44,018 nucleotides of DNA from Escherichia phage vB_EcoP_B. The translations under genes and the position numbers were made by a program. Shown here piece by piece: positions 1 through 44,018 of this stretch. The DNA is taken from the sequence record NC_047806.1, one strand, 5' to 3'. The notes under the pieces were generated by a model that saw only the letters and a list, made by a program, of their open reading frames with translations, was not told the origin of the DNA and ran no database searches. Position 1 is the stretch's first letter; every line of letters starts with the position of its first letter.

Positions 1-1128
1 TAACGCATCTCGCTGGATTTCTACAGCAGTAACACGTTCGGCATCACGGCGTGTCATCGTCTCCATCATGAATACGACACCGATACGGCGAGTGTACACC
101 TCTAGAACCGCACTAATAGGTGTGAGGTCTGCATACTTACCTAACTGTACAATATGGATGTCTTCTTCTACACCAGTAACAACCTCACCAGTGCCAGAGT
201 TAACAAAGTGGTCAACATCAGTCTGAGCACCCGGACGAATCAAGTACTTAATATCTGCCATCAGTGCAGCACCACGGGCAACTGCTTCAGACAGGAATTG
301 GATAACGAATAAATCACCGGAGTAATCCTCTGCTAAAGGACGACCCCAATCCTCACCATAGCTTCGCTTCCAAGTTAGCGGGATAAATGGTAGCTTTTCT
401 GATTTGATTTTACTTACCTTACCAACAGGGATATCATCAGCAGATTGCTTGAGTTCCCAAAAACCCTCACCAAGATACTTAGCATGTGTGTACAGCTTAA
501 TGCTGTCATCTTCCTTGCATTTCTTACCTTTCAAGCCCACCTCTACCACAGCACGGGTAGCGGGGTCAAATGTACGCAAGGACTTTTCTTGCAGTAAGAT
601 AATGTCTAACAGGTCGCCATTGGTATCACGGTTAACTACGTAGTGATGCATTGGTATTGCACTGATTGCACCTTTGCTCGGCTTGTATAGCATACAGCTG
701 CCAGCAACAATAAGATGCTTGAATGCTTCTACTACAGCAGGCCGGAATTGACGTTGCTCTAACTCTTTCATTGCCCGTGTTTCCACTTGAGCAAAGATAG
801 TAGCTAGCTCTGTCTTCTTCAGGCCACGCTGATTAAGAATCTTCTCACCTTGTGCAGTTAGGTCTACACGGAAGAAGGAGCGCTGTGCAGGGAATAGCAC
901 TTGCGCTAGCTTGTTGGCTAGGTGGTTAGTTGCCTGAGCACCTACACCTTGCCATCCGTTCTGCGAAGTCTCGTTATCACCTTTGTCATTCATCAGATAG
1001 GGCAAGGTTAATTTGGAGTAATGCTTCGCCCTATCAAGGAAAGAGCTACGTTTAGTGGAGAACTTCTCCCATAGCTTAGGTATCTTAGACCGCTTACCTC
1101 CATACTCCAAATCTGTGCTCTGTTTCAT
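1..1128 (-). CDS. portal (head-tail connector) protein, N-terminal 376 codons; partial, continues at the window end
   Basis: ATG at 1126-1128 with AAGGTG SD; frame open to position 1 (absent from ORF track because no stop in window); translation MKQSTDLEYGGKRSKIPKLWEK...ERVTAVEIQRDAL resembles T7 gp8 (from memory). Confidence 0.75.
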   Translation of the reverse strand, partial: MKQSTDLEYGGKRSKIPKLWEKFSTKRSSFLDRAKHYSKLTLPYLMNDKGDNETSQNGWQGVGAQATNHLANKLAQVLFPAQRSFFRVDLTAQGEKILNQRGLKKTELATIFAQVETRAMKELEQRQFRPAVVEAFKHLIVAGSCMLYKPSKGAISAIPMHHYVVNRDTNGDLLDIILLQEKSLRTFDPATRAVVEVGLKGKKCKEDDSIKLYTHAKYLGEGFWELKQSADDIPVGKVSKIKSEKLPFIPLTWKRSYGEDWGRPLAEDYSGDLFVIQFLSEAVARGAALMADIKYLIRPGAQTDVDHFVNSGTGEVVTGVEEDIHIVQLGKYADLTPISAVLEVYTRRIGVVFMMETMTRRDAERVTAVEIQRDAL

Positions 1129-1129
1129 A

Positions 1130-1339
1130 TTACACCTTCAAGCTAGAAGCTACCGGACGGACAAGCCCGCGCTTACCTTTTGCAGATGCAGTCGCATCAT
1201 CACCACCTGCACCAATCTGTATATCTTCAGCTTCAGTCTCAGGCTTACGCTCAAGCTGCTGAGCAGGAACCTTGGCTTCAATACGCGGTGCATCTTGAGC
1301 AAGACCGACAGCCTTAAATGCTTTCTTTACAATACCCAT
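1130..1339 (-). CDS. small hypothetical protein (69 aa), possibly gp6.7-like virion protein
   Basis: ORF track; ATG with strong SD CTAAGGAG; sits immediately upstream of portal; composition resembles T7 gp6.7 (weak). Confidence 0.5.
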   Translation of the reverse strand: MGIVKKAFKAVGLAQDAPRIEAKVPAQQLERKPETEAEDIQIGAGGDDATASAKGKRGLVRPVASSLKV

Positions 1340-1348
1340 GTGATCTCC

Positions 1349-1810
1349 TTAGAACTTCAGGTTATACACAGTGCCAAACTGTTCAAAGCCAAGTCGCTTA
1401 TACATACGTCCGACACGTTCTTCATTAATACCAGAAGCGATAGACAGGCGAACCTCGGAACACCCACTATCGTTAGCCCATTGCTTCAAGGCTTTGATGA
1501 GGCGCATACCGAGCAGTGTCCCTCGCTTCTCTGGTACAATATAAAAGAGAATGTCAGATGCAACTCTTACAGGTGTCCAAGGGGCTAACTCGTGATAGCC
1601 AGCCCACAGAAAACCTACAATCTGCCCTTCATCTACAGCAACCCATAGGAATAAATCTTCTCTACTAAGAGATGCACAAAGGTTATGTGCGCTTTGTTCT
1701 GCATTCCATGAGGCTGAGTGGTGGGCTACAATCTTGACTTCTTCTTCCACATATTTATTCCCAAGGTTTATAATCTCAGGAATATCTAGGAATGAAGCTG
1801 GACGTATCAT
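1349..1810 (-). CDS. GNAT-family N-acetyltransferase (153 aa)
   Basis: ORF track; GNAT-like pattern (WVAVDEGQIVGF ... VPEKRGTLLGMRLIKAL ... YKRLGFE); ATG 1808-1810. Confidence 0.6.
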   Translation of the reverse strand: MIRPASFLDIPEIINLGNKYVEEEVKIVAHHSASWNAEQSAHNLCASLSREDLFLWVAVDEGQIVGFLWAGYHELAPWTPVRVASDILFYIVPEKRGTLLGMRLIKALKQWANDSGCSEVRLSIASGINEERVGRMYKRLGFEQFGTVYNLKF

Positions 1811-1989
1811 TGGACCACCAGTTGTGCTCTAACACAATCCATAATGTAACGCTTCACTTCATCTACGATTAATTCTTCGTGAGTCTTAGTCACCTTCGGA
1901 GAAGAAGGCTTGAGAATCATCTCAAGCATCTCCATACCCTCAAATGAAATCGTCGGTTTCTTCTTCGTCTGTACCATAGAGTTCTTCAA
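1807..1989 (-). CDS. hypothetical protein (about 56-60 aa)
   Basis: ORF track; listed start is TTG, first ATG at 1975-1977 with weak SD; stop overlaps GNAT start. Confidence 0.3.
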   Translation of the reverse strand: MKNSMVQTKKKPTISFEGMEMLEMILKPSSPKVTKTHEELIVDEVKRYIMDCVRAQLVVQ

Positions 1990-2155
1990 CCTTCTCTTGG
2001 ATAGCTTCTACAGAAAGACCAAGCTCTTCTGCATCAGCTAGTAAGGTATATGGCACTTCCATGCCACAGGATAAAGTTTCAAAGATAGCTTCTGCTACCT
2101 CAACTGCACGAGTTGCCTTCATGCTATCAAAAGAAATCTGGTTCATCTTTGTCAT
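1940..2155 (-). CDS. hypothetical acidic protein (71 aa)
   Basis: ORF track; ATG 2153-2155; acidic C-terminus EEETDDFI. Confidence 0.4.
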   Translation of the reverse strand: MTKMNQISFDSMKATRAVEVAEAIFETLSCGMEVPYTLLADAEELGLSVEAIQEKVEELYGTDEEETDDFI

Positions 2156-3074
2156 GTCTTAATTCTCCAGCTTTGGGCAGACGAATGTTGCCCTTGCTTG
2201 AATCCTGAAGACCTTTTACTTCAAAGATTTTACCAATGACATTCAATCGTCCACCGTGTTTAATATCGTGGAACATCTGTTCTGCATCTGCATGAGTCCA
2301 CCCTTTACCTAACATAGCTTTGATTGTCTTGCCTCCTTTCCATTTGAAAATGAGGTTAGCTACCTTACCTTTGTACTTACCTTTGCCTTCTTCAAAGCCA
2401 ATACAAGTAAGGTCATAAGTTACCTTACGGACTTCTTTAGTCTGACGATAACCTTTGTGGCCTGCTTCATAATCACAGTCCAGTTTAAACACAGCACCCT
2501 CTCGGCCTGCGTCTATTTGCTCTTGCGCAAACGCTTCAACTTCTCGCTCATTATGGCAAGGAGTAATAGGAAGGATAGCGTTGTACCCGCTAAGATGAGC
2601 GCCGATGCGACGATGTAAAGCATCGTAACGTTTGAGATAAGAAACATCAGTGAATCCATCATGGAATGCCTTAATAGTTAACATATCGAAGAAGTCAATA
2701 TACAGGTTGTCTTTAATCTGCTGGCCTATGAAATCAAGTGGCTCTGTGCGATTAGGGTTAACTACTCCAGAAAGTGCTTCAAGGTAGACATCAACAGCCA
2801 TAGATTGCAACTCACCGAGATAAATGCCAGTAGGGAAAGCTGAATAAGATTCTTCCAAGGTTTCCGTGTTAGCCAGTTTCTTTCCAGTGCGTCCAAAGAC
2901 ACCAACGACACCATCGTTGCGAACAACCACAGCACTAAATATCCCATCTCGTTTTACCTGTGCATAACATGGAAAAGTTAATTTCTTCTCAGGTACTTCA
3001 CCGCGATGTTTCACCAGCATGAATGGGTGATTGCGGTGGTCTTCTGGAAGACCTAGGAATTGGAAGATATTCAT
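2127..3074 (-). CDS. ATP-dependent DNA ligase (315 aa)
   Basis: ORF track; nucleotidyltransferase motif I KRDG; strong SD GAAGGAGGTG; size/content like T7-group ligase. Confidence 0.75.
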   Translation of the reverse strand: MNIFQFLGLPEDHRNHPFMLVKHRGEVPEKKLTFPCYAQVKRDGIFSAVVVRNDGVVGVFGRTGKKLANTETLEESYSAFPTGIYLGELQSMAVDVYLEALSGVVNPNRTEPLDFIGQQIKDNLYIDFFDMLTIKAFHDGFTDVSYLKRYDALHRRIGAHLSGYNAILPITPCHNEREVEAFAQEQIDAGREGAVFKLDCDYEAGHKGYRQTKEVRKVTYDLTCIGFEEGKGKYKGKVANLIFKWKGGKTIKAMLGKGWTHADAEQMFHDIKHGGRLNVIGKIFEVKGLQDSSKGNIRLPKAGELRHDKDEPDFF

Positions 3075-3244
3075 TTCACCTCCTTCATCACACCTTTAAC
3101 TATTGCCTCTTTAAAGTATGCTAAGTCAGAACCATAGGCACTTAGGAACCACATTGCACCTTCATCATTGGAGGTCAATACAAAACCAAGAGGGCTTACT
3201 CTATATAAGTTACCGAAGTACCCTCTATATAGTTTACCTTCCAT
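3071..3244 (-). CDS. hypothetical protein (57 aa from ATG; track shows TTG-extended 63 aa)
   Basis: ORF track 3071..3262; first two starts lack SD, ATG at 3242-3244 has GAGGA SD. Confidence 0.4.
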   Translation of the reverse strand: MEGKLYRGYFGNLYRVSPLGFVLTSNDEGAMWFLSAYGSDLAYFKEAIVKGVMKEVK

Positions 3245-3245
3245 A

Positions 3246-3716
3246 TTAAATATCCTCATCAATACATTCGTGACGATGCTTCTGGAATAGCTCTTTGTAG
3301 TAGTCTGCTTTCTTCAGATCTTCTTCCGTGTTGAATTTCTTCCCTGCACGCAGACGATACTTCAAAGCATTACCCATGCAATATCCAGCAAATTGCTTCT
3401 CGGTCATACTACGAGCAATGATAGTGATTGCCTCTACCCCATCGAAGAACTCGTAGTGCTTAGGCTTAGTAACCATATTGTTGTCCAACGTGCTAGGATC
3501 TTCACCTTGCAATGAGTCAACAACCTTGAAGTAAGGTGCATACCATTCGCGCTTCTCAACACCTTCTAACATGATAGAGTTATAATTAGGTTCTGCACGG
3601 GATACTTTGAATACCCCATCTGGTTTCTTGTCTAGGCTTTCACACAGTTTATTCCAGATGGCATCTCGGTAAGCTGCACGGCGTACGACGTATTCGCCAA
3701 TATAAATCTTTGACAT
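3246..3716 (-). CDS. hypothetical protein (156 aa), possibly DUF3310-like
   Basis: ORF track 3246..3731 trimmed to ATG 3714-3716 with GGAGGA SD; KPKHY...GNALKYRLRAGKK pattern (family assignment from memory, weak). Confidence 0.5.
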   Translation of the reverse strand: MSKIYIGEYVVRRAAYRDAIWNKLCESLDKKPDGVFKVSRAEPNYNSIMLEGVEKREWYAPYFKVVDSLQGEDPSTLDNNMVTKPKHYEFFDGVEAITIIARSMTEKQFAGYCMGNALKYRLRAGKKFNTEEDLKKADYYKELFQKHRHECIDEDI

Positions 3717-3769
3717 AATTAATTCCTCCATTCACTATACAATCAAGGGCAAGCTAATACCTACCCTTT

Positions 3770-3790
3770 GTTCTATAGTGTCAACTAAAT
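3770..3790 (-). promoter_or_regulatory. phage RNAP promoter (SP6-type)
   Basis: minus-strand ATTTAGTTGACACTATAGAAC; upstream of 3246..3716. Confidence 0.65.
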
Positions 3791-4792
3791 CTTACCAATC
3801 CAGCGATTGTCATTATTGGTCTGCATCGGGACAATGTGCGGCACACCCTCCAGAATAACCACACAACCTAATGCTGGCTTGTATTTGGACTCACGACCAT
3901 AGGCAAATGCACGAGATGACTCATCAATCAAACAGCCTCCCTGCACAGCCCAATACTGTTCATGGGTGTTACGTGCATACTCCACCGACATCTTCCCATG
4001 CAAGTGACCACACACTAAGTTCATGCGCTCATGTGCTGCATCTGCTAGGACAGCGCCAGCAGGTTGATGCTTGAACGCCACCTGCTCACCATTAGGTAGC
4101 TCAAGTACATGCGTATGCTGCCAGTCCCACTGGTCGCCACCTCCCTGCGGGAAGAAGACTTCACGGTATGTGCGCAGGTATTGCACAGGGATGCCATGAG
4201 CACTGGCCTTACGGAAATGTAAGGAGCCATGATTAGAGTGGCAGATGCGCATTACAGGGAACATCTTATGTAATTTACGCATGAAGATACGAGCCTTCTC
4301 TAACTCCATACCAGCCGAATCCAGATTAGGATCTGACGTATGGAATGAAAGTGCGTGCTTGTCCGCCTCATCACCAAGATGAACTACAGTGTCTGGACGG
4401 TAACGTGCTGCCACCGCTGCCAGAAACTCTAATGTATCTGGATGCTCATAAGGTGCATGGGTGTCAGGTATTACCAGTACACTTCGATGAGGCGAGTCAG
4501 GCAATGGTACAATAGCCAAATCCTCGTAGCGGTCAGGAGTCCTGAGCTTACGTTCTTCTTTGATAGCACGGTTCGCAATAGCCAAGGTTTCATACGCCTC
4601 GCCATTCTTCTTCCGCTTTTCAAATTGTTTGGCCCAATACTTTGCAAGCTGCCTTGTAACTGTAGTCCCGTGTGTGTTATCTGAGAGAATAGACGCCATC
4701 AGGCGATAGTTGATAGTGCCATCATCCCGCTTTGCACTTTCAACTGCTTCTTCTACCTCCTTATTAGTAAACAAGTTTCTAATCTTACCCAT
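3785..4792 (-). CDS. calcineurin-like metallophosphoesterase (about 335 aa)
   Basis: ORF track 3785..4804 (TTG start) trimmed to first ATG; motifs IPDTH, HLGDEADKH, CHSNHG, CGHLHG in canonical order. Confidence 0.7.
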   Translation of the reverse strand: MGKIRNLFTNKEVEEAVESAKRDDGTINYRLMASILSDNTHGTTVTRQLAKYWAKQFEKRKKNGEAYETLAIANRAIKEERKLRTPDRYEDLAIVPLPDSPHRSVLVIPDTHAPYEHPDTLEFLAAVAARYRPDTVVHLGDEADKHALSFHTSDPNLDSAGMELEKARIFMRKLHKMFPVMRICHSNHGSLHFRKASAHGIPVQYLRTYREVFFPQGGGDQWDWQHTHVLELPNGEQVAFKHQPAGAVLADAAHERMNLVCGHLHGKMSVEYARNTHEQYWAVQGGCLIDESSRAFAYGRESKYKPALGCVVILEGVPHIVPMQTNNDNRWIGKI

Positions 4793-4846
4793 TATTCTTT
4801 CCAAACCCTCCCGCTTACAATATCACTAATGGTAGCAGGTGAGACA

Positions 4847-5221
4847 TTATAGCTTAGCTAGTCGTAACCTCTCACCTTTCTTATTAGCAACATATGTTGC
4901 CCTGATAGCACGTACAACATCCCAAGTTAGTTTAGCACGATTATTATTTTCTCCTGCAAAGCTAGCACGTCTGCCTCGATCTATCATATCTTGTATGTTG
5001 TCCTGCTGTGTACCAGATATTAAGTGTGCAGGGTTTATACACCTTGCATTATCACAAGTGTGTCTAATCACTACATCCTTTATATCCTCTATAGAAAGGC
5101 CGTGGTGCTCTGCATAGACCACGCGATGAAGTAATTGTAACCTCTTACTAGGTTTATGCCACGACCTGTAGTAACCTAATTGATTTAAGCATTTATAATG
5201 CCCGTGGTCTATACAGTCCAT
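4847..5221 (-). CDS. HNH endonuclease (124 aa), possible homing endonuclease
   Basis: ORF track 4847..5353 trimmed to ATG 5219-5221 with AAAGGAG SD one nt after upstream stop; HNH core HHGLSIEDIKDVVIRHTCDNARCINPAHL. Confidence 0.65.
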   Translation of the reverse strand: MDCIDHGHYKCLNQLGYYRSWHKPSKRLQLLHRVVYAEHHGLSIEDIKDVVIRHTCDNARCINPAHLISGTQQDNIQDMIDRGRRASFAGENNNRAKLTWDVVRAIRATYVANKKGERLRLAKL

Positions 5222-5222
5222 A

Positions 5223-5624
5223 TCATACTCCTTTCTTTCTTGCATAAGCAAGGCGTGCCTTACGGTTCTTAGCCTCGCGCTTCTCTGCCTCCGTTTGATG
5301 TTTGTGATATAACTTATCTGTCTGAGGCGTACTATGTAACTTCCAGTATTCATACAGTCGTTCTAACCATTGAAGCTGGAAGTAACGGTTATTACCTGCC
5401 TTGCCATAACCAGAGATAACACCCTTAATCTTCCCTTCCGCACCATTGCAGCCTCGGCATACAACAGCGCGGCAGAATCCTGTCTCATGGTCATGGTCAA
5501 GTACACGGTTTACAGGTGTGACAGCTTTGAGACTGCCGCCACACAGAGGGCATTTCCAGCCTTGCTTATCCAGCAATTCCTTCTTATAAGCTGCCACCTC
5601 CGATGCTTTTAATTTGCTAACCAT
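5223..5624 (-). CDS. endonuclease VII-like Holliday-junction resolvase (133 aa)
   Basis: ORF track; CPLCGG ... DHDHETGFCRAVVCRGCNGAEG resembles T4 endo VII zinc/HNH region. Confidence 0.65.
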   Translation of the reverse strand: MVSKLKASEVAAYKKELLDKQGWKCPLCGGSLKAVTPVNRVLDHDHETGFCRAVVCRGCNGAEGKIKGVISGYGKAGNNRYFQLQWLERLYEYWKLHSTPQTDKLYHKHQTEAEKREAKNRKARLAYARKKGV

Positions 5625-6637
5625 TCCGCATCATCTCCCCACAAGATTGGGTTCTTATCGGCTCGCCATATATCACCTTTGAATCTAGCCATGTGAGCTA
5701 GGCGACCACATTCAAGCATCAGGTCAAAGGCTTTGCCGATACGATAACCACCTCGGTAATTCTTAATCTTAACTTGTCCATGCCCGAACTTAGCCTTGTA
5801 AGCACCCAGCACTGCCATGTACAACTCTTTCTCTGTCTTACAATCTTTGAGAAGATCATAGGCATATTTAGCACCACGACCTGGTATGCCAGCATAGTTA
5901 TCAATATCATCACCGATAATCATCTGTGCATAGTGGAACATGAGGCCAGCACCTTTTAGATCTTTGACTTGCCCATTAGCCTTACGGCGTAGCTCAAGCC
6001 AGCCCATAGGCTCTACCCACTTCTTCTCTTGACCCGGCTGTAGATGCCAACCGGGAACAATCATCAAATCCTTATCCAAGGAAACGATGCAAGTATCAGA
6101 GAATGATTTATGCTCTGGACTACCGATAGGGAACTCGTTACCTGTATCTTGCTGGAAGCGGCGGTGGCTGTCCCATTGTGCGATACTCATGAGGTCGTCT
6201 GCTTCCTCTCCATCTGCCAAGATTGCACCGTGAACCTCTAAGAGATGCTCTCGCAATTCATAGAAGAATGGAGGCTTCTCGGTCTTACGTTGACCTTTAT
6301 AAGGCTTGGTGAATGCTAGGCGGACACGGAAGTTAGCTTCTGATTTCGTCATGAATAACTTAGCTGCATCACATTCTGCTGCATACACCCAAGAGTTAAG
6401 CAAGGAGTTCACACGGTCACACGCTTGCTTACACTCAGGCGTATCTTTGATTGATGGGACTTGTCCTGACTTAACACGAGTTGTGGCTCGTACATAAGTC
6501 ATGTCGCTGATTGTATACGCGACGATGTAAGGCAACATATCGGCATCTATTAAAGCGATTCGATTACCTTCAGTCGGCCACAGGATGAGATTATTGTCTT
6601 CCGATACTGTAGCTCCGAAGTCGAAGTTTGGTCGCAT
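5609..6637 (-). CDS. 5'-3' exonuclease (gp6-like), about 342 aa
   Basis: ORF track 5609..6646 (GTG start) trimmed to ATG with AAGGAG SD; LIDADMLPY and DKDL/GIPG blocks like T7 gene 6 exonuclease. Confidence 0.75.
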   Translation of the reverse strand: MRPNFDFGATVSEDNNLILWPTEGNRIALIDADMLPYIVAYTISDMTYVRATTRVKSGQVPSIKDTPECKQACDRVNSLLNSWVYAAECDAAKLFMTKSEANFRVRLAFTKPYKGQRKTEKPPFFYELREHLLEVHGAILADGEEADDLMSIAQWDSHRRFQQDTGNEFPIGSPEHKSFSDTCIVSLDKDLMIVPGWHLQPGQEKKWVEPMGWLELRRKANGQVKDLKGAGLMFHYAQMIIGDDIDNYAGIPGRGAKYAYDLLKDCKTEKELYMAVLGAYKAKFGHGQVKIKNYRGGYRIGKAFDLMLECGRLAHMARFKGDIWRADKNPILWGDDAEWLAN

Positions 6638-7384: not shown

Positions 7385-7399
7385 ACCGGACACCGATTT

Positions 7400-34528: not shown

Positions 34529-37477
34529 CTACAATTTAACTTTACCTACCTTAGAATCTTTAGCTAACTTGGTAGGTGCAGCATCATAAACCTGATACCA
34601 ACCATCCGCGCCAATACGTTTATGAGTCCATGCCGAGACAGAACCTGCTGGCATAGGGCCACCAAATCTAACCCACATGGAGCCATCTTCACGAGTCTCC
34701 ACTTCGGTAATCTTAGGCACACCACCAGCAGATGCCATATTGTAAGCCTCAGCACGTCGCTTCAGTAAGCCAGAAACACGTTTACCTTCACTAGATGCAG
34801 TACCCAGCATTTCGATAAAGCCTTCCGTAAGTTTACCAGCTTTGAATGCAGCAAGAGCACGCGGTGAGTTCTGGATTCCACCTTTACCTAAATTGTAGGT
34901 TAAATCCATCAAGCCACGTTGCTGTGCAGGATGCATCTGGTCAAACGGAATCTTCCAGTCACGAGTAGGAGGCACATGCTTCTTAGCATCTTGCTCCATA
35001 AGAGCGCGAGCCTTACTCTCTGTAAGCTGAGACATAGACCCTCGATAGGGAACTAGTTCATCGCCAATCTTAATATACCCGTTTCGCTTCTCTTCTTCCG
35101 TTAAGAAATGACCGTAACCGATAGACTCACCGTGAGCGTCTTTATATGGAGTAAAGGTTCCAGTTGCCTTATTAAAGCCAACTTTATCTTTATTCTCATC
35201 CATAGCTAGCTTGTCATAGAATTGTTGCATATTACCTCGATAGTTAATCTCGAAGTTAGAAGGCAGATTCTCACCAGAAGCAAAAGCAGAAGACATGAGG
35301 AAGTTAGCTAGTCCAAATTTACCAATATCTTTGGCAGTTGGCTTAGCTGGCATTGGTTCTTGTGCACCGATACCTGTACGATAGGGATGAACATACTCGC
35401 CTTTGTCTCGTTCTTCTACTTTCTTCTGATAGGCAGAATCCAGTAGTGAAGTGGTATCCAAAGAAGTTACAGGGATTACTCCAGAAAGAGGGCGACCTGC
35501 TGCACCAGCACGAATCACAAAAGTTCCTTTCTGTTCATTGTAATCAATGTACACATCATCCTTAGTTTCCCACTCTTGAAGCTCCTTCTTCAATTCTGGC
35601 ATCTGTGTTTCTACATACCTACCAAGCGCCAGAGGGACATCGGTAGGGTTTACACCTTTCCCAACTGACATAAGCATATCAGATGCAGAAGTGTAATCAC
35701 CTTTAATGAAATAGCCACCTGAAGTCTTTGCATCCTCTGATTGAGTGTAGCGTTTATTGCCCCAAGTAATTAAAGCCTTCTTGATAGAATCCATGTTACG
35801 CATACCGCTAGACCACAGCATATTGGCCTTAGCTCGTAACTCTTCTTCCGCAATAGCTTTACCTAAGTCTGACACTTCGGTTTTACCATCAAACCAGCCA
35901 GCACCAGATACCTCATCCAGTGCATCTCCAATAGCTGAGTTGAACTTCTTGTTTTCCTTCTCAGTACGAGAGAATTTATGCTGTGCTTCACGCGCAAACC
36001 TTGCAGCCTGCAAAGGTGTCTCTCCCATTTGTAGTGCAGTATTGTAGTTATCCATGTAGCCATTCACCGTGTCACCAAAGACACCTCGGCTCTCTTCTGG
36101 CAACTGTTCCCACAACTGACGAATAGTCATCAACTCCTGTGGTTCGCCCTTGGCAAAGTGCTCAGGAGATAGCATAGATTCCATGGCTTTGATACGAGAC
36201 TCAAAGGTATCATCCACTAAGCCTTTGGAGTTCATGAATTGCAGGCGCTGCACTTCCACTGCACCACGAATAGCTTCAGCCTCTTGACTGTAAGGGTCCA
36301 AGCCACGTTGTTTGATTTGCTGGTCTGCATAAAGTTGGCTATCCTGTTTGATAACATCAATGTAAGCCTTCTTCTCTTTATCAGTCTTACCTTGGAAGCC
36401 AGTCAGGCGGTCGGAGTAAAGCTCACGTCGCATATCCTGCATTGCACCTAGCTCTGCATTCTGCTTAGCCCGTTGGCGCATCAGTGCCTCTAGCTCTGGA
36501 TTAGAGAAGACAGAGTTACCTGTCAGATTATTAATGTGCTGTGCTCGTTCCAATAATTCTTTATCAGTTAAATCGCCTGCAAGGTATGATTCTTTAACTT
36601 CGAAAGACATACGAGTTACATCAGCTACATTATTCCTAGCCCAAACTGCATTACCACTAGTGATGGCTGTGATAAGCTGTGGATTCTTAGCATAAACAGA
36701 AACGCCCTTATCGTCCTTCACATACTTCAGGGCTTCAGCCATGCTAACATCCCCACCTTGTGCAAGTGAAATTGCCCGCTGGACTAACTTCTTGTACATC
36801 TGTTCAGGTAGTAATCCTTGAGTCAGACCTTCGCGGATTCGTTCCTGTAAAGCATAGCCAGAGGCCTCAGGGTCAATATTAGAATCCCAAGTAGAAGCCA
36901 CTCGCCCGTCAAAGGTATCCTCACGGTCTGCTTGTTCACGGTCAAGTTTATGCTTGGTTCGTGTAGCCCAAATCTGAGGCTGCTGTTCTTGGAAGACATT
37001 AGTGACCATACGCATAGTATCTTTGTCACCTTGCAACTCAGGGTATTGCTGGAACAGCTTATTCTGCATCTCATTACGAGAGTCAACCATAAGTTGTGTC
37101 CACTCGTCATCCGTCCCTTGGAAACGAGTAGCCATGTTTTTCATTCGTGCTGCTTCATCATTAGCTAGCAGTTGAGCTTTGACAAGCATGTTAGCACGAG
37201 CGCCACCACGAGTTGCATCCTCAGAAGGCATTAATCCGTTATATGCCCGTTCCATTTGAACAACCTTATCTTCCTCAATCTTCTGATTAAGGATACCAGT
37301 GGTAACATCAGCCACGCTGCTTGCTGCACGAATAAGGTCTTCGATAAACCCACTACCGGAGGTAGAAGCCACGCCAGCCTCCACACCTCCCACTTGTTGA
37401 GGTGCAAAGGTCATGACATTAGGAGAAGTGGCCTGCACTTGTGGCAGACCTTGTACTGCTTGTCGCTCAATTGCCAT
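34529..37477 (-). CDS. internal virion protein with C-terminal lysozyme-like domain (982 aa)
   Basis: ORF track; ATG overlaps upstream stop (TAATG); residues around YKDAHGESIGYGH...DLTYNLG resemble T4-lysozyme-type fold. Confidence 0.7.
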   Translation of the reverse strand: MAIERQAVQGLPQVQATSPNVMTFAPQQVGGVEAGVASTSGSGFIEDLIRAASSVADVTTGILNQKIEEDKVVQMERAYNGLMPSEDATRGGARANMLVKAQLLANDEAARMKNMATRFQGTDDEWTQLMVDSRNEMQNKLFQQYPELQGDKDTMRMVTNVFQEQQPQIWATRTKHKLDREQADREDTFDGRVASTWDSNIDPEASGYALQERIREGLTQGLLPEQMYKKLVQRAISLAQGGDVSMAEALKYVKDDKGVSVYAKNPQLITAITSGNAVWARNNVADVTRMSFEVKESYLAGDLTDKELLERAQHINNLTGNSVFSNPELEALMRQRAKQNAELGAMQDMRRELYSDRLTGFQGKTDKEKKAYIDVIKQDSQLYADQQIKQRGLDPYSQEAEAIRGAVEVQRLQFMNSKGLVDDTFESRIKAMESMLSPEHFAKGEPQELMTIRQLWEQLPEESRGVFGDTVNGYMDNYNTALQMGETPLQAARFAREAQHKFSRTEKENKKFNSAIGDALDEVSGAGWFDGKTEVSDLGKAIAEEELRAKANMLWSSGMRNMDSIKKALITWGNKRYTQSEDAKTSGGYFIKGDYTSASDMLMSVGKGVNPTDVPLALGRYVETQMPELKKELQEWETKDDVYIDYNEQKGTFVIRAGAAGRPLSGVIPVTSLDTTSLLDSAYQKKVEERDKGEYVHPYRTGIGAQEPMPAKPTAKDIGKFGLANFLMSSAFASGENLPSNFEINYRGNMQQFYDKLAMDENKDKVGFNKATGTFTPYKDAHGESIGYGHFLTEEEKRNGYIKIGDELVPYRGSMSQLTESKARALMEQDAKKHVPPTRDWKIPFDQMHPAQQRGLMDLTYNLGKGGIQNSPRALAAFKAGKLTEGFIEMLGTASSEGKRVSGLLKRRAEAYNMASAGGVPKITEVETREDGSMWVRFGGPMPAGSVSAWTHKRIGADGWYQVYDAAPTKLAKDSKVGKVKL

Positions 37478-38199
37478 TAAATACCTCTTGTTCCAGATGA
37501 ATATGTGCGAGAATCAGTTAAGGCTTTACCCAATGCCTTGCCAGACTTACTACCAGTTACATAGGCAGATGCCAGACTTGGAATACCTTTAACCAAGGTA
37601 TTCATAGCAGAAGGCTTCTTAAACTCACGCATCTGCATCTGACCACCACGTTGGATAGACTTAAGCTGGTTGGTGAAATTAATCTTCTGATTCTCATAGT
37701 TATCAATGATAGTACTCTGGTTTCTGCCGCCATCTGCTGCTAAGTCATTAAGCATAGAGGACACAGAATTACCACCAGTACCAGTAGCCCCAGCAAGTAA
37801 TGCAACCTGTGCTCGCTGCTGTAGCAGTGAAGCCTGATTACTGATTGCATCTGCATGATATTGTTTAGCAGCAGAACGTTCTGCGTCTGCCACTGTCTTG
37901 TACGCCTCTTGTGTAGCAATAAGCTGCTGCCGCCATTGCTCTTCTTGTGCTTTCTTCATCGCCTTGGCTTCATCACTTCCACCAAAGAGATCACCAATCA
38001 AGCCTAACCCTTGAAGGCCAGCACCAAGAAGGCCAGCATTAGAGAAACCAGCAGTGGAGCCACTTAGGAATCCACCTAGTGAACCTAGCAAACCTCCGCC
38101 ACCTGCGGCAGCACCTCCAGCAGCGGCTGCTGCACCGCTGCCTGCAAACATACTACCAATAGAAGACATACCAGACATAACGGCTGAACCTATAGCCAT
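37477..38199 (-). CDS. internal virion protein, Gly/Ala-rich (about 240 aa)
   Basis: ORF track 37477..38238 trimmed to ATG 38197-38199 with AGGAGG SD overlapping tail-tube B stop. Confidence 0.6.
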   Translation of the reverse strand: MAIGSAVMSGMSSIGSMFAGSGAAAAAGGAAAGGGGLLGSLGGFLSGSTAGFSNAGLLGAGLQGLGLIGDLFGGSDEAKAMKKAQEEQWRQQLIATQEAYKTVADAERSAAKQYHADAISNQASLLQQRAQVALLAGATGTGGNSVSSMLNDLAADGGRNQSTIIDNYENQKINFTNQLKSIQRGGQMQMREFKKPSAMNTLVKGIPSLASAYVTGSKSGKALGKALTDSRTYSSGTRGI

Positions 38200-40601
38200 T
38201 AGACCCTCCTTTTGGTTGGATTGTAGCTCCCTTCCCACTCAATATCGCGGAGCTGGAATGTGTGAGGTGATTCTACAATAATACGATAAACAGCATCCGT
38301 ACTCTTAGCTCTCAGTGGGAATCTGAAGACACCTTCTCTTGGTTCAACATAACCTACTGTATTGTTGAGAGCACCACCTATACGGTTTGACGCTAGCACC
38401 CTGCGTACTTTACCACTCTTCACATTCTTAACCTCCACGGAGAAATCAGGATACATATCAAGATTAAGGTGAACCAACCCCACAACAGGTACATCAATAT
38501 AGGATACACGGTCTTGCCTATCTCTGATAACTACAGGTGTTGGTTCAAACTCTTGAGGGTAAATCTGACCAACAATAACCTTCGCTTTTACGTGGCTATC
38601 ATCATGCATATCAAAGGTTGTAGACAAGGTGTTATCACCGGGATTATATTTGAATAGGAAAGAACCACCAATATATGAATCCCACCCGTCTATTAAGATG
38701 CAATCCAAAAGCTCTGGGTTAGTAGGAGTCCAAGGAAGCGGTTCAGACACCCATTCATCTTCTGCTTTAAAATGCTTGAAGACTAACTCTGCTTGCCTAT
38801 CCATCCTAATGCGGTCATTCAAACCATAGGTTAATGCATCACCCATGTCCATCTTCTCCAGATATACGCCATCCCCTCGCTCAAGGAGTAGGTAAAGTAA
38901 TTCACCAGAATAAAATAGACCTCGCACCTTTGTACCTACAGGCCACTTCCATACATGCCATGCTGATTGTACACGGTCTGTTCCTTGCCATAACCAATCA
39001 TAGCAGTAGATTATGTTACGGTACTTATCGGTAGTGACAAGTAACCTGTTGACATTGGTGCTTGCTGCCATGTTGGTAATGTTACCTTCGATGAGTTTAT
39101 TCACATGACTTGTGATTGCTTGTGCCTTCTTAGTGTCACTATAAGAGTCTGTATAGAACTCTCGTACACCAGAGTAATAACCATCATTAGTGGCAAACAT
39201 TACCGATTCACCAGTTACTACTGGCTTCACTTTATTGTTCACTTCAAATGTTGTAACAGGCTTAAGCAATGCATTTGACTTCTCTAAAGGCTTATCGCCT
39301 GGCAGTATGAATTGTGACTTATCAGAGAACAATACGGTAGCTCCATCTAAGGTCACTGCATGTTTTAGCTGGTAAACTTCACTCGCATCTGAGAAAATAT
39401 CAAATGGGTCAGTTGCCAATGCAGAGATAACCGTATAACGAAAGAAATCGAAGAAATATGATGTACGAGAAGCAATAACCGCTTCACCTGCTGTAAAGCA
39501 TAGGCGGTTCTGCACCATGAACATTCCACCTATTGTCTGGGGTACTTCCTCATCAATAAAAGAGGGCATAGGGTTAGTCAAGTCATCCCCTACTTTACGG
39601 TCTTCCCAATCCCCTTGTCTTATCTTGAATTGAGCTATGCCGTCAATGATACCTGTACGTTCAATAATGTAAGGCATTGTGCCTTTATCAAACCCAAGTA
39701 ATACATCAGCAGCTATTGTTTCTTTCCAAGACACAAGGTTTCCCTCTTTAGGCTCAGCTTGCAGCCAGTAACGAGACTCAGGTTTGCTGCCAGTAGGCCA
39801 CACTTGTACTTTATAACCAGCAGGCGCACGAGAAGGGAGTAGGTCAGTAGAGCTAACTTTATTCTTGATAGCCACTAAGTCCTTACCTTTTGCACCATCG
39901 GTAGTTGTTACTGTGAAACTTTTACCATCGCGTCTCTCTATAAATATGCTCGTACCATCTCTTTGTATTTCATAGTCATTCACACCACTCCATTGCTGCA
40001 ACTTGGAGTACAATTCAGAAGTGATACGTTCCGTTCGTATTTGTTCAACATGTTCTGCACTTCCCCCATCTGGTGTTTTAAAACTAGCAGCTGTAGTTCC
40101 ATTAATTATGATAGAATAAGATGTACCGTATTGACCATATGCACAAAACACAATGGCTTTATCTCCAACTTTAGGTGACTTCCTATTACTAACTTTAACC
40201 ACTTTCCTACGGTTAAGCATAAAAGTAACATCAGCTATAGTCATGAATTGCACATCTTCCCTAGGGTTAACAACTTCAGAAAGGTAGGTCATAGGTGCAT
40301 CTTGAGAGGTGACATTGCACTTGCGTCCATGCTTATCAAATATCTCTGGCACTTGCCCCTTCTTTAAGGTGAAGAAATACTCTTCATCCCCCTCACCCCT
40401 GCGATAATGGTGCGTTGCCATATTATCTGTACCTTCATCCAAGAGCTTAGCAATGTGAGTTGTACCCATGCGGGATTGAGTCCCATTCACTACATCAGGG
40501 ACCATGTTCACCATAGTCGTACATTGGCCATCAAGACGTACCGCTGGTGGTTGCTGGCTAATCCCTTGGATTTGCCTCCCTAATGAACCTTGTACTTCCA
40601 T
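38199..40601 (-). CDS. tail tubular protein B (gp12-like), about 800 aa
   Basis: ORF track 38199..40631 (TTG) trimmed to ATG with GGGAGGA SD; size like T7 gp12 (794 aa); position. Confidence 0.7.
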   Translation of the reverse strand: MEVQGSLGRQIQGISQQPPAVRLDGQCTTMVNMVPDVVNGTQSRMGTTHIAKLLDEGTDNMATHHYRRGEGDEEYFFTLKKGQVPEIFDKHGRKCNVTSQDAPMTYLSEVVNPREDVQFMTIADVTFMLNRRKVVKVSNRKSPKVGDKAIVFCAYGQYGTSYSIIINGTTAASFKTPDGGSAEHVEQIRTERITSELYSKLQQWSGVNDYEIQRDGTSIFIERRDGKSFTVTTTDGAKGKDLVAIKNKVSSTDLLPSRAPAGYKVQVWPTGSKPESRYWLQAEPKEGNLVSWKETIAADVLLGFDKGTMPYIIERTGIIDGIAQFKIRQGDWEDRKVGDDLTNPMPSFIDEEVPQTIGGMFMVQNRLCFTAGEAVIASRTSYFFDFFRYTVISALATDPFDIFSDASEVYQLKHAVTLDGATVLFSDKSQFILPGDKPLEKSNALLKPVTTFEVNNKVKPVVTGESVMFATNDGYYSGVREFYTDSYSDTKKAQAITSHVNKLIEGNITNMAASTNVNRLLVTTDKYRNIIYCYDWLWQGTDRVQSAWHVWKWPVGTKVRGLFYSGELLYLLLERGDGVYLEKMDMGDALTYGLNDRIRMDRQAELVFKHFKAEDEWVSEPLPWTPTNPELLDCILIDGWDSYIGGSFLFKYNPGDNTLSTTFDMHDDSHVKAKVIVGQIYPQEFEPTPVVIRDRQDRVSYIDVPVVGLVHLNLDMYPDFSVEVKNVKSGKVRRVLASNRIGGALNNTVGYVEPREGVFRFPLRAKSTDAVYRIIVESPHTFQLRDIEWEGSYNPTKRRV

Positions 40602-41338
40602 TAACGATCCTCCCACGGACGAAGTGCCCAACTGTCATATGGTGAATGAGAGTAAGCAGGTACATTCTGAGAACCACCTGCCATAATACCGAACTGACGC
40701 TGCGTAGGATTATGCACAAGCATATTCAATCGCTTTTGTGACATTTGTTCTGATTGCACATCCATTAGAAGCTGAGTGGCAATCTGCTGTGCAGTGGCTA
40801 GCTTAGTCTGATCTGCATCCTTAGACACAATAAACTCTACAGCAGCTTGATAGGCAATAGCCTGCATTACACTAGTAGGTAGATGCTCATATGGAAGTAA
40901 GGTAAGTAAGGTAAGACGAATCATACCATTAGCATTCACATGCTTACGCATATCAAAGGTATGACTCCATGTAGAGTAGAGCTTACCTGCTCGCATAGTC
41001 ATGGGTACTTTCTTCTCACCCAAAGCATAACACTGCAATACTGCTAGGCAGTTGTTAGGTAGATTGACTTCACCATTGGTATCAGGTGCAATCTGCCAGT
41101 TTGGTTCACGATTGAACCACCAGCCACCTCCTTTGTTGTACTGGAATCGCTGGGATACGATGTCGATCATCTTGCTTGCATCTTCTGCGTCCAAGTCACC
41201 TGAGTCGAGAGAATCCACACCCTCACGACCAATAGCTCGCATACACAAGTTTACCGCTTCCAGCTTACTATCAATAATCTGGAAGGCCACATCTTCCATC
41301 ATATGACCTACTTTACTGGTTTGTCTAATTACAGGCAT
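40601..41338 (-). CDS. tail tubular protein A (gp11-like), about 245 aa
   Basis: ORF track 40601..41389 trimmed to ATG 41336-41338 with AGGAGGG SD; the track's extra 17 codons are the terminator hairpin/T-run; GGGWWFN resembles T7 gp11 GWTFN. Confidence 0.65.
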   Translation of the reverse strand: MPVIRQTSKVGHMMEDVAFQIIDSKLEAVNLCMRAIGREGVDSLDSGDLDAEDASKMIDIVSQRFQYNKGGGWWFNREPNWQIAPDTNGEVNLPNNCLAVLQCYALGEKKVPMTMRAGKLYSTWSHTFDMRKHVNANGMIRLTLLTLLPYEHLPTSVMQAIAYQAAVEFIVSKDADQTKLATAQQIATQLLMDVQSEQMSQKRLNMLVHNPTQRQFGIMAGGSQNVPAYSHSPYDSWALRPWEDR

Positions 41339-41349
41339 GAACCCTCCTA

Positions 41350-41386
41350 ACAAAAAAAGAACCCTACCTACGCAAGGTAGATAGGG
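41350..41386 (-). terminator. intrinsic terminator after capsid gene (T-phi analog)
   Basis: 10-bp stem CCCUAUCUAC/GUAGGUAGGG with 5-nt loop followed by UUCUUUUUUUG; overlaps leader/SD of tail tube A. Confidence 0.6.
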
Positions 41387-41394
41387 CATAGGTA

Positions 41395-42600
41395 TTACTC
41401 AGCAGGTTTCATTGCAGTCGGCTTAATGTCATTAGCCATCACTGCACGAACAGCAGCAACCAAATCTTCAGCAGGCAAGCTAGCAGCGGCAGCAGCACCT
41501 GCCGGGGCAGCATTCTTGACGTATACAGCTTTACGCTGTGCACGGTTCAGAACCTGAGTGTGCTGTGCTCCACCAGTACCCTCAGCCTCCCCAGTAGATG
41601 TGCTACGCTTAGTTGTCACAACAGACACTGCTTCCCATCGATCAGGGATTGCACCTTCAGACATGAAAGTATCAATGTAGTAGGTCTTCTCTTTCTTCTC
41701 ATAGAAGATATCACCGGTTACATCAATAGAACGACCCACAAGCAGAGCGTCAGATGTGAACAGTACAGCGATAGCACCATTCATCTCTGCGGTCGGGTCA
41801 TAACGATAACCGTTGTCTTCATTGGACAGCAGGTGATGTTTCTGACCCTGAGAGAATTTAGGGAAGCGGTTAGACGGGATAACAGGACAGTTGTAAGAAG
41901 ACAGAACAAAACCATGAATGGTTGCACCGGACTGGCTGATGGTGTAGCTCTTGTCAACGATACGGTCTGCATCACGCAGTACGTTGAAGTAGCGCCACGG
42001 CATCAGGATAGCTACATCAGAGATGTCTACTTCCTGCTCAAGCTGCTGCTCCAGAGCAAACTCTACAGCCGCCATTACATACTGCGGGTTAACCAGTGCT
42101 TCGCTTTCATTGACCTCCACGTTGACAGAGAAGCCATGACCTTTCACACGAGGGTTAGTACGCTTAGCCTGAGTGTTAGCAATACCACCCAGCAGCATCT
42201 GCTGAATCAGCATTTCATCTTCCATCTTCTTAAGCTGCTTAGCTTGGTTGGTAGCCAGCTTAGGTTTCAGGCTGTCAATATCACCCTGTACATCATGCAG
42301 GTGTGCAACGGTGTTACGAGCAATAACAGTGGCATCAATTACCAGCTGGTTTTTATCGGCCTGAGTAGAGGTTGCAGCCGGAGACTGACCCGGTGCCAGA
42401 ACCTGCAACTCTGTTTCACCCAAGTATTTGTTGCTTACCGTGTTAGTACCAGTAACAGTCTGAACATCGAAGTAGGACATGATGTTCTCACCTTTCAGGT
42501 ACTGCTCATTTACCTTACCATTGAATTTCTCAATGAGCAGGCTGTCTACCTCACCGGAAGCGGAGACTGCAACGTTGGTCAGAGTGTTCGGTGTAGACAT
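41395..42600 (-). CDS. major capsid protein (401 aa)
   Basis: ORF track; strongest SD in window AAGGAGG; promoter 42651-42671 upstream; terminator immediately downstream; size typical of SP6-group capsid. Confidence 0.8.
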   Translation of the reverse strand: MSTPNTLTNVAVSASGEVDSLLIEKFNGKVNEQYLKGENIMSYFDVQTVTGTNTVSNKYLGETELQVLAPGQSPAATSTQADKNQLVIDATVIARNTVAHLHDVQGDIDSLKPKLATNQAKQLKKMEDEMLIQQMLLGGIANTQAKRTNPRVKGHGFSVNVEVNESEALVNPQYVMAAVEFALEQQLEQEVDISDVAILMPWRYFNVLRDADRIVDKSYTISQSGATIHGFVLSSYNCPVIPSNRFPKFSQGQKHHLLSNEDNGYRYDPTAEMNGAIAVLFTSDALLVGRSIDVTGDIFYEKKEKTYYIDTFMSEGAIPDRWEAVSVVTTKRSTSTGEAEGTGGAQHTQVLNRAQRKAVYVKNAAPAGAAAAASLPAEDLVAAVRAVMANDIKPTAMKPAE

Positions 42601-42650
42601 TAATAAACCTCCTTATAAATCAAATTGATAATTTAGGGAGACATTTCTCC

Positions 42651-42671
42651 CTTCTATAGTGTCCAGTAAAT
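42651..42671 (-). promoter_or_regulatory. phage RNAP promoter (capsid promoter)
   Basis: ATTTACTGGACACTATAGAAG between scaffold and capsid genes. Confidence 0.75.
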
Positions 42672-42676
42672 ACTGA

Positions 42677-43597
42677 TTAAAGTCCGCGAGCCATACCAGC
42701 GCGGCGGCGAGCATCCAGTCTAGCCTGATACTCAGCAGCAGCTTTCTTGTCTGTGCCGAAGCGAGAGCTAAGGGTCATCATCTCACGCAGGTACTGCTCA
42801 CGCGAGAGTGGGCCGTTGTCTTCTGATGCGGCAGCAGGTGCAGATGGTTCAATCAGGCTTGGCTTGTCATCACCTTGTGCAGCCTTACGGCGGCTCTCCA
42901 GTTCACGCACAGCGTATTGCTGAAGGTACTGGTTGCCAGACCCCATCACCGCATTGAATGCCATTAGTTCGTCATCAGACAGCGCTTCAAGTGCCCACGC
43001 CTCAAGACGGGACCACCCTTCTTCACCACCAATTTCCTTAGAAACATCAGAGAAGCGTTGGGTATTAGCTGCTTCCAACTCTTTAGCTGCGTTGGCTTCT
43101 TTTAGGAAGAAGGCTTCATTTTGAGCCTTAAGGCCTGACAGGTAAGCATCTACCGCAAACTTGCCAAAAGCATCATACAGTTTCTGCTTGGTTGCATCAG
43201 ACAGCTCAAACTTGCCATCTTTGGCATAGAGTTCCTTGGCAACCTGCTTAGCATCAATACCTTTCTCTTTAAGGCTATCAGTAACATCCTGTGGTATATC
43301 TACTGTTACTTCATAGTCTCCGAAGAAGTATTGCACTTCCTCAGTGTCGGTCGTGGTATCATCTGGCTTAGATTCACCATTCTCTCCGTCATTGTCTCTC
43401 GCTTCTGAAGGTTGTCCAGAAGTTTCTCCTCTGGTGTCTTCAGCAGATTGTGTACTAGCATTGTCATCTTGTACATTAGTTCTAGTATCAGCATGAACAT
43501 CATTAGTAGTAGCATCAGTTGATACCTCCTTGGTTTCTACCGGATTGTCTTCAGCAATAGGATGAGTGGTTGACGGTTCAGTAAATGAGAAAGACAT
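42677..43597 (-). CDS. scaffolding protein (gp9-like), 306 aa
   Basis: ORF track; acidic helical protein between portal and capsid; AAGGAGG SD. Confidence 0.65.
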   Translation of the reverse strand: MSFSFTEPSTTHPIAEDNPVETKEVSTDATTNDVHADTRTNVQDDNASTQSAEDTRGETSGQPSEARDNDGENGESKPDDTTTDTEEVQYFFGDYEVTVDIPQDVTDSLKEKGIDAKQVAKELYAKDGKFELSDATKQKLYDAFGKFAVDAYLSGLKAQNEAFFLKEANAAKELEAANTQRFSDVSKEIGGEEGWSRLEAWALEALSDDELMAFNAVMGSGNQYLQQYAVRELESRRKAAQGDDKPSLIEPSAPAAASEDNGPLSREQYLREMMTLSSRFGTDKKAAAEYQARLDARRRAGMARGL

Positions 43598-44018
43598 TAC
43601 GCCTCCTTAAGTTCTTGTTGAATTACACCCGGAATGGCCTTAGCCACACCCTCTTCAAGCATCTGTGCTTGCTGTGCTTGCATCTGCGCTTCCTGTTCTT
43701 GCTCCATCTCTTCAGTCGATTTAAGGAATGGCAGTTCAGCAGAGATTTGACCACGTACCCAATCCATGTAATCAGGCCACTTCACAGCAGCTAGGACAGG
43801 CTCAGGCCATTGCAAAGGCAGTGACATGTACTGAGCGAAGTTTGCCAGCTTATCCAGTTCAGCCATGCGCCCTAATGCTTCAATGCCTGTGATAATCACA
43901 GGGTCAACTAGGTCACTAGTGAATGAATCACCTGCCTCCAGCAGACCCCACATCGCTACTGGCGATTGCATAGTAGTAGCAAAGAGGGAATATACACCGC
44001 CCATGTTCTGCTCAATCT
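43597..44018 (-). CDS. portal protein, C-terminal about 140 codons; partial, 5' part is at the window start
   Basis: ORF track 43597..44004; frame open to window end; GGVYS...TGIEALGRMAELDKL resembles T7 gp8 C-terminal region. Confidence 0.75.
   Translation of the reverse strand, partial: IEQNMGGVYSLFATTMQSPVAMWGLLEAGDSFTSDLVDPVIITGIEALGRMAELDKLANFAQYMSLPLQWPEPVLAAVKWPDYMDWVRGQISAELPFLKSTEEMEQEQEAQMQAQQAQMLEEGVAKAIPGVIQQELKEA

Follow-up and report, generated by a model that had tools for sequence, protein, structure and literature searches.

The window, which is the whole 44,018-nt stretch of DNA analysed here, very probably represents the entire unique part of a lytic K1E-like podovirus genome in the form of a circularised assembly, with the 289-bp direct terminal repeat (DTR) collapsed to one copy, an arbitrary start and one base lost. 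The portal gene is split across the two edges of the record. This split is an artefact of assembly layout rather than biology, and neither new biology nor a novel reading follows from it.

Gene content and relationship to other phages

The window holds an essentially complete phage genome of the K1E-like type (SP6 group), reverse-complemented and rotated. Its genes are all on the minus strand, where 54 of the 59 K1E proteins queried were found in order (nested ORFs 13.1, 13.2 and 30.5 were left out of the query set). Genes assigned by homology, named after their K1E counterparts, include the following.

2127–3074, minus strand: DNA ligase, gp24 homologue
9582–12128, minus strand: DNA polymerase, gp13 homologue (848 aa, 100%)
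13674–15662, minus strand: DNA primase/helicase, gp9 homologue
16337–18964, minus strand: single-subunit phage RNA polymerase, gp7 homologue (875 aa, 99.7%)
23197–25632, minus strand: endosialidase tailspike (predicted activity), gp47 homologue (811 aa, 90%)
27809–30006, minus strand: small terminase (gp39 homologue) and uninterrupted large terminase
30194–31156, minus strand: tail fibre/endosialidase adaptor, gp37 homologue (99.4%)
31156–38199, minus strand: internal virion proteins, gp34, gp35 and gp36 homologues
38199–41338, minus strand: tail tubular proteins A and B, gp32 and gp33 homologues
41395–42600, minus strand: major capsid protein, gp31 homologue
42677–43597, minus strand: scaffolding protein, gp30 homologue, whose ATG overlaps the portal stop (TAATG)

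Ten SP6-type promoters were observed on the minus strand, compared with 0.03 expected by chance, and their consensus (ATTTA..GACACTATAGAAG) is SP6-like. Rfam and tRNA scans of the whole window returned no hits.

Judged from its sequence, the window is a K1E-like phage of E. coli K1, belonging to the genus Vectrevirus (Molineuxvirinae, Autographiviridae; SP6 group of the T7 supergroup). It is strictly colinear with the type member K1E (AM084415) at about 96% nucleotide identity over the whole length, in ordered blocks of 89–99.6% identity that cover ∼95–97% of the window. It encodes its own RNA polymerase (the gp7 homologue) with ten matching promoters and one-strand transcription, a predicted K1 endosialidase tailspike with its adaptor (the gp47 and gp37 homologues), and a homologue of the short DTR of its relatives, with the same boundaries (22381–22669). 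The preliminary description had proposed a rotated, reverse-complemented, near-complete SP6-like genome, and the whole-window colinearity with K1E bears this out and places it in Vectrevirus.

K1E has the same gene order, and the window proteins are mostly 90–100% identical to its own. The two phages share the endosialidase tailspike and adaptor as well as SP6-type promoters, and the end sequences of their terminal repeats are identical. The K1E record is in the conventional orientation and contains both repeat copies (45,251 bp), whereas the window contains one. K1E also carries a terminase intron with a homing endonuclease gene (HEG), gp2.5 and gp9.5, all of which are lacking in the window; the K1E gp40A/40B exon junction falls at window positions 28541/28540, and no intron is present there. 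Conversely, an HNH endonuclease ORF located between the gp21 and gp22 homologues of the window is not found in K1E; this ORF shows an apparent 1-nt frame change near position 4850. Salmonella phage SP6 and coliphage K1-5 have the same overall architecture as the window, at much lower nucleotide identity, and the SP6 tailspike module, specific for the Salmonella O-antigen, differs from that of the window.

The sister phages vB_EcoP_R, C and D (KY295899, KY295892 and KY295893; Vectrevirus cee) are strictly colinear with the window at ∼98% nucleotide identity over the whole length, and contain an equivalent of the 289-nt repeat (93% identity). Compared with them, the window has no group I intron with homing endonuclease in the large terminase and no gp9.5 homologue. 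It contains an additional 87-nt duplication that includes T20 runs, and the helicase genes of the window and vB_EcoP_R share only 91.6% identity.

The circular appearance of this 44-kb element would also suit a prophage or phage-plasmid from an E. coli genome assembly. Its genes are those of a strictly lytic phage of the T7 supergroup, and the 20.5–24 kb region had no megablast hit among 5,426 complete E. coli genomes and 72,556 plasmids. A prophage or plasmid origin was rejected on account of this lack of matches, and we give it practically no weight.

The split portal gene

The two parts of the portal gene are located at opposite ends of the window.

1–1128, minus strand: portal (head-tail connector, K1E gp29 homologue), codons 1–376, cut by the window start (tblastn, Pfam/structure match)
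43597–44018, minus strand: portal codons 378–516, stop codon TAA at 43599–43597, and two bases of codon 377 (reading frame, tblastn)

The minus-strand frame beginning with the ATG at 1128–1126 is open to base 1 and comprises 376 codons (ending ...ERVTAVEIQRDAL), exactly as previously described. The second frame, described as stopping at 43597 and open to 44018, indeed extends to the window end, with 139 sense codons from 44016 (IEQNMGGVYS...LKEA) and two leftover bases at 44018–44017 ('AG'), which are positions 2–3 of the split codon 377; the first base of this codon is missing. As 1128 is a multiple of 3, the number of bases needed between window end and window start is exactly 1 (mod 3). Translation of an end-to-start join without insertion runs immediately into stops, while insertion of C, G or T on the plus strand at the join produces a single 516-aa ORF, and insertion of A produces a stop. 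The sister phages have C at this position (plus strand), giving GAG (Glu) as codon 377 and a restored plus-strand junction of ...CTCAATCT-C-TAACGCAT... The window edges map to positions with exactly one base between them in six independent relatives (vB_EcoP_C, D, R and K, ACG-C91 and mutPK1A2). The earlier estimate of 1 missing nt (1 mod 3) and a portal of ∼516 aa can therefore be sharpened to exactly 1 nt and 516 aa, in agreement with these relatives.

In a tblastn search with K1E gp29 as the query, residues 1–376 matched 1128..1 (99.7% identity) and residues 378–516 matched 44016..43600 (98.6%), both on the minus strand; judged from these alignments, the matches of the portal halves are near-identity homology and not chance. 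With the C restored, the portal is identical to those of vB_EcoP_R (R_3), C (C_31) and D (D_2) at 516/516 residues, and to K1E gp29 at 513/516; codon 377 is GAG in the three sister portals and GAA in K1E gp29. The restored protein matches Pfam family PF12236 (Head-tail_con) in one stretch across the join (residues 13–472, E = 3.7e-87, 293.2 bits against a curated cut-off of 27 bits), covering profile positions 1–486 of 489. The connector protein in PDB 7y22 matches residues 8–515 (E = 9e-256), and the T7 portal 6r21 matches residues 18–509 of 516 (E = 3.6e-59). T7 gp8 (PDB 6r21, 6qwp and others) belongs to PF12236 like the window portal and is a distant homologue of it, its match being far weaker than that of the 7y22 connector. 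The view that both pieces derive from one T7 gp8-type portal is thus upheld by unbroken matches to PF12236 and to T7 gp8 structures across the join, and the check that had been proposed, joining the ends with one nucleotide and aligning the product to portals, yields a single portal protein. The gene order gp27-gp28-portal-scaffold-capsid is likewise retained across the window edge.

Taken at face value, the raw split could indicate that the edge ORFs are separate genes, or that the portal is genuinely frameshifted or truncated in the phage, and it offers nothing further in this direction. The two parts agree at every residue with the uninterrupted portals of vB_EcoP_R, C and D (376/376 and 139/139), the sole gap is the first base of codon 377, and the break coincides with the record edge; moreover, the portal is an essential protein. 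A frameshift in the phage was rejected, the break sitting at the record edge with flanks identical to intact sibling portals, and the probability of either form of this explanation is negligible.

Terminal repeat and genome ends

The DTR is represented in the window by one segment.

22381–22669, minus strand: direct terminal repeat, single collapsed copy, 289 nt (homology to the K1E repeat and to the termini of relatives)

In K1E, the terminal repeat is 288 bp (positions 1–288 being the same as 44964–45251), and window positions 22381–22669 align end-to-end with both copies. K1E position 1 corresponds to window position 22669, and K1E position 45251 to 22381. The repeat boundaries coincide with record termini or annotated DTRs in at least 8 relatives, including mutPK1A2, KAW1A4500, Mt1B1_P10, fTuEco01, ACG-C91, EC120 and K1-5. 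The K1-5 repeat, which ends at position 234, can be aligned over its distal half only, and its end matches that of the window repeat. A terminal repeat of 266 bp was independently reported for KAW1A4500 (PMC6563267). By homology, and read along the minus strand, the genome would run from a left end at 22669 (TCTCGCCCTCGCCCTCGCCGG...) to a right end at 22381 (...GAGGGTGTGGGCTA), and these are the probable ends of the virion DNA.

The preliminary description had judged the physical ends more likely to lie near 21.9–22.1 kb than at the window edges, and this location is off by 0.3–0.7 kb. The interval 21.93–22.09 kb was rejected as the location of the ends because K1E positions 1 and 45251 map to 22669 and 22381; it corresponds to K1E ∼580–630, internal to the left arm, and is occupied by the 87-nt tandem duplication described below. 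The accompanying proposal of a circular or circularised representation of a linear T7-like genome fits the presence of a single 289-nt terminal-repeat equivalent within the window.

A truly circular or circularly permuted genome (headful packaging), with no fixed ends, would account for the window closing on itself to within 1 nt. Against this, the single 289-nt segment is homologous end-to-end to the repeat found at both termini of K1E and of other linear relatives, and a collapsed DTR is the expected assembly outcome for a T7-like genome. In addition, the window terminase is 99.6–99.7% identical to K1E gp40A/B, which belongs to the short-DTR class (PMC5582158). We consider a circular or permuted genome very improbable.

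Origin of the record layout

We infer the following assembly history for the window. The virion DNA would be linear with a 289-bp DTR, and short-read assembly would merge the two repeat copies, producing a contig that closes on itself like a circle. The closed contig would then be broken at a random place and emerge in a random orientation. In this case the break would have fallen in portal codon 377, with one base, C on the plus strand (the G of GAG, Glu, on the coding strand), lost on trimming or closing of the contig ends. Once this base is restored and the sequence re-linearised at the repeat, the genome would measure 44,308 bp and be colinear with K1E. The two ends of the window were also checked for an overlap of 10–299 nt, of the sort usually left by assemblers as a k-mer repeat, and none was found.

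Published data on this group of phages are consistent with such a history. Baig et al. 2017 obtained SPAdes contigs whose ends were joined by Ns, with the gap filled from remapped reads. They gave a size of 44,307 bp for vB_EcoP_B (KY295891), a Smith and Huggins therapeutic phage, which equals 44,018 + 289. Their published sizes also exceed the record lengths by 289 for vB_EcoP_R (45,230 vs 44,941) and C (45,259 vs 44,970), and by 288 for D. The R, C and D records are reverse-oriented with an arbitrary start inside a gene, like the window; the break lies in the portal gene in the window, in tail tubular A in R, in gp6 in C, and in capsid/scaffold in D. The junctions of the sibling records are defective as well, R lacking 2 nt, D lacking 140 nt, and C lacking ∼10–12 nt with NNNN remaining.

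A less likely origin of the missing base, though one that retains some weight, is that it is present in a 44,019-nt circular-style source record and that the window was cut one base short on extraction. The offset of 288 in vB_EcoP_D favors this, since 44,307 could equal 44,019 + 288. However, two of the three full-length siblings give an offset of 289, the repeat equivalent in the window is itself 289 nt (44,018 + 289 = 44,307 exactly), and the sibling records deposited from the same pipeline demonstrably carry junction defects. We therefore favor loss of the base during assembly.

The layout matters for bookkeeping only: in an annotation of the record as it stands, the portal gene would be overlooked or shortened and the genome ends would be put in the wrong place. 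The correction consists of re-linearising at 22669 (reverse complement), restoring the base and adding the second copy of the 289-bp repeat, and the sister records R, C and D, cut at the genes named above, need the same correction.

Early region and the 87-nt duplication

Two features were identified in the early part of the left arm.

20796–21850, minus strand: early leader region among small early genes (K1E gp1–gp2.8 homologues; motifs, homology)
21929–22085, minus strand: 87-nt tandem duplication with 97% identity between the two copies and a minus-strand T20 run in each (sequence comparison)

The early leader contains predicted sigma-70-like promoters (TTGACA-17-TACATT) at 21850–21822 and 21155–21127 on the minus strand, together with three exact rrn-type boxA motifs. 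Nothing on boxA in SP6 and K1-5 emerged from a literature search. The duplication is ∼300–450 nt inside the left end of the genome, and the early promoters and boxA sites lie downstream of it. In K1E and vB_EcoP_R the 87-nt unit is single and has TTT in place of T20. It is improbable that the phage itself carries the duplication with its two T20 runs, as opposed to the assembly having created it; should the phage do so, early steps of infection, for example genome entry or early transcription, might be affected.

Genome identity and colinearity

In megablast searches with both halves of the window, the matches are K1-specific K1E-like podoviruses (Vectrevirus, Molineuxvirinae, Autographiviridae), with ∼98% identity to the sibling phages vB_EcoP_R, vB_EcoP_C and vB_EcoP_D and ∼96% to K1E; no identical sequence was found in the phage collection searched in this way. 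The window aligns with K1E in a strictly colinear, antiparallel manner, and 54 of 59 K1E proteins queried are matched on the minus strand in K1E order. These include the RNA polymerase (99.7%), DNA polymerase (100%), primase/helicase, ligase, scaffold, capsid, tail tubular proteins A and B, internal virion proteins, endosialidase adaptor, both terminase subunits and the endosialidase tailspike. The minus strand also carries 10 SP6-type promoters (ATTTAC..GACACTATAGAAG; 0.03 expected by chance). The SP6-like assignment of the preliminary description is correct at group level, K1E-like being the precise label. Scans of the window for tRNAs and Rfam families gave no matches, nor did a search of complete E. 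coli genomes and plasmids with its 20.5-24 kb region. The phage is of a known type, and its genome is almost certainly already published. The window counterparts of K1E gp41 and gp42 (27080-27364 and 27380-27655, minus strand) are adjacent paralogues with 37% identity over ∼94 aa, as they are in K1E.

The split portal gene

Both edges of the window fall within one gene. A minus-strand ORF starting with ATG at 1128-1126 is stop-free to base 1 (376 codons, ending ...ERVTAVEIQRDAL), and the minus-strand frame closed by TAA at 43599-43597 is open to the window end, with 139 sense codons from 44016 (IEQNMGGVYS...QQELKEA) preceded by bases 44018-44017 ('AG'), positions 2 and 3 of a codon cut by the edge. 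As 1128 is a multiple of 3, exactly one base (mod 3) lies between window end and start. Joining the edges without insertion gives immediate stops, while insertion of C, G or T on the + strand yields a single 516-aa ORF. The edges are likewise one base apart in vB_EcoP_C (25139/25141), vB_EcoP_D (1338/1340), vB_EcoP_R (3053/3055), vB_EcoP_K (35368/35370), ACG-C91 (22051/22053) and mutPK1A2 (22050/22052). The + strand base between them is C in vB_EcoP_R. Portal codon 377 encodes Glu in all four phages compared, as GAG in vB_EcoP_R, C and D and as GAA in K1E.

With C restored, the product is identical at 516/516 positions to the protein that the vB_EcoP_R, C and D records call 'head to tail connecting protein', and at 513/516 to the K1E portal gp29. 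It matches Pfam PF12236 (Head-tail_con, 293 bits) in one stretch, residues 13-472, across the join at residue 377, and also aligns in single stretches with the solved portal 7y22 (8-515, E=9e-256) and T7 gp8 structures (6r21 and 6qwp; 18-509, E about 4e-59). The two edge pieces are one portal. The split frames and 1-nt gap had been described exactly, and the predicted T7 gp8-type portal of ∼516 aa is borne out by the joined ORF and its alignments.

Terminal repeat and genome ends

The deposited K1E genome is linear and carries a direct terminal repeat of 288 bp (1-288 and 44964-45251, 100% identical). In the window, K1E position 1 falls at 22669 and K1E position 45251 at 22381, with conserved end sequences on the left (TCTCGCCCTCGCCCTCGCCGG...) and right (...GAGGGTGTGGGCTA). 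The intervening 289-nt segment is present in only one copy in the window, flanked by right-arm sequence on one side and left-arm sequence on the other, as at a concatemer junction or where a terminal repeat has been collapsed. The same boundaries are record termini or annotated repeats in KAW1A4500, fTuEco01, ACG-C91 and EC120, and recur in mutPK1A2 ('redundant repeat') and Mt1B1_P10 ('direct terminal repeat'); K1-5 position 234 coincides with the distal boundary. For KAW1A4500, an independent report gives a 266-bp repeat (PMC6563267).

A genome rebuilt as rc(1..22669) + G + rc(22381..44018) is 44,308 bp long with identical 289-bp ends, and is colinear with K1E from 1 to 45251. Homology, together with the terminase class, an argument for linear DNA with terminal repeats (PMC5582158), suggests a linear virion DNA whose ends, at 22669 and 22381, carry the 289-bp repeats. 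The view of the record as a circularised form of a linear genome agrees with the single repeat copy and with boundaries that are termini in relatives. The physical ends had been placed at 21.9-22.1 kb; given where the K1E termini map, this estimate is off by 0.3-0.7 kb and is ruled out, the locus corresponding to K1E ∼580-630, inside the left arm. It contains a tandem duplication:

21929-21998 and 22016-22085: two tandem copies of an 87-nt unit, 97% identical

Each copy has T20 on the minus strand (A20 on the + strand at 21939-21958 and 22026-22045), whereas K1E and vB_EcoP_R have a single copy of the unit with TTT in place of T20. The duplication may be a genuine expansion or may have arisen during assembly, and it is suspicious that both runs measure exactly 20.

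Record layout and junction defects

The Smith and Huggins K1 phages were sequenced by Baig et al. (2017), whose pipeline took one SPAdes contig per phage, joined its ends by Ns and closed the gap with remapped reads to 'circularize' the genome (PMC5582158). The sizes in their Table 1 exceed the GenBank record lengths by one copy of the repeat.

Published sizes (PMC5582158, Table 1) and record lengths (nt)
vB_EcoP_R: Table 1, 45,230; record, 44,941; difference, 289
vB_EcoP_C: Table 1, 45,259; record, 44,970; difference, 289
vB_EcoP_D: Table 1, 45,219; record, 44,931; difference, 288
vB_EcoP_K: Table 1, 38,025; record, 37,775; difference, 250
vB_EcoP_B (KY295891, probably the record of the window): Table 1, 44,307; window, 44,018; difference, 289

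The vB_EcoP_R, C and D records are reversed like the window and start inside genes, each with its own junction defect relative to the window. vB_EcoP_R (KY295899) lacks 'CC' (window 40967-40968) in the tail tubular A gene, whose annotated CDS is truncated to 351 nt. vB_EcoP_D (KY295893) lacks 140 nt (window 42540-42679), leaving the capsid truncated and the scaffold unannotated. vB_EcoP_C (KY295892) starts 'TTNNNNAGTC', and its gp6 homologue has lost ∼10-12 nt. The 1-nt loss in the window belongs to the same class of artefact, and the split portal is an artefact of record layout: the assembler would have collapsed both terminal repeat copies, and the resulting circle would have been broken at a random place. 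A minor alternative is a source of 44,019 nt that lost a base when the window was cut, which the 288-nt offset of vB_EcoP_D allows.

Gene content differences

What distinguishes the window from its closest relatives is mosaic variation of an ordinary kind. Its large terminase gene (27809-29707) is continuous across the exon junction at 28541/28540, whereas K1E has at exactly this site (38525-39303) an intron of group I (RF00028, 63.6 bits, 38525-38732) and the homing endonuclease gp40.5, and the annotations of vB_EcoP_R, C and D show this 40A/HEG/40B split as well. The window has the intron-less allele, which accounts for ∼747 nt of its smaller size relative to the siblings. No counterpart was found in the window for K1E gp9.5 (locus 13672-13678; present in vB_EcoP_R as R_27) or gp2.5 (locus ∼21039-21093), small-gene differences that are typical of the group. 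One ORF is present in vB_EcoP_R but absent from K1E:

4795-5221, minus strand: HNH endonuclease ORF, between the gp21 (endonuclease VII) and gp22 homologues

It is 100% identical to the vB_EcoP_R protein R_12, but a 1-nt frame change near 4850 puts its last 19 residues in another frame; this is either an error in sequencing or a sign that a homing endonuclease gene is in decay.

Early region

In the early region the rrn-type boxA antitermination motif GCTCTTTAACAA occurs three times without mismatch (0.01 expected by chance):

21759-21770, minus strand: boxA
21082-21093, minus strand: boxA
20819-20830, minus strand: boxA

Sigma-70-like promoter sites of the form TTGACA-17-TACATT (21850-21822 and 21155-21127) are located ∼50-60 nt upstream of two of the three. 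This placement suggests that early transcripts of the host RNA polymerase may be made termination-resistant; boxA-like elements have been noted in the early regions of SP6-group phages. Directly inside the left repeat, 11 CTTAG/CCTTAGT motifs occur within 120 nt (22189-22308, minus strand), against an expectation of ∼0.7 per 500 nt, an array reminiscent of the short-repeat arrays that adjoin the T7 terminal repeat.
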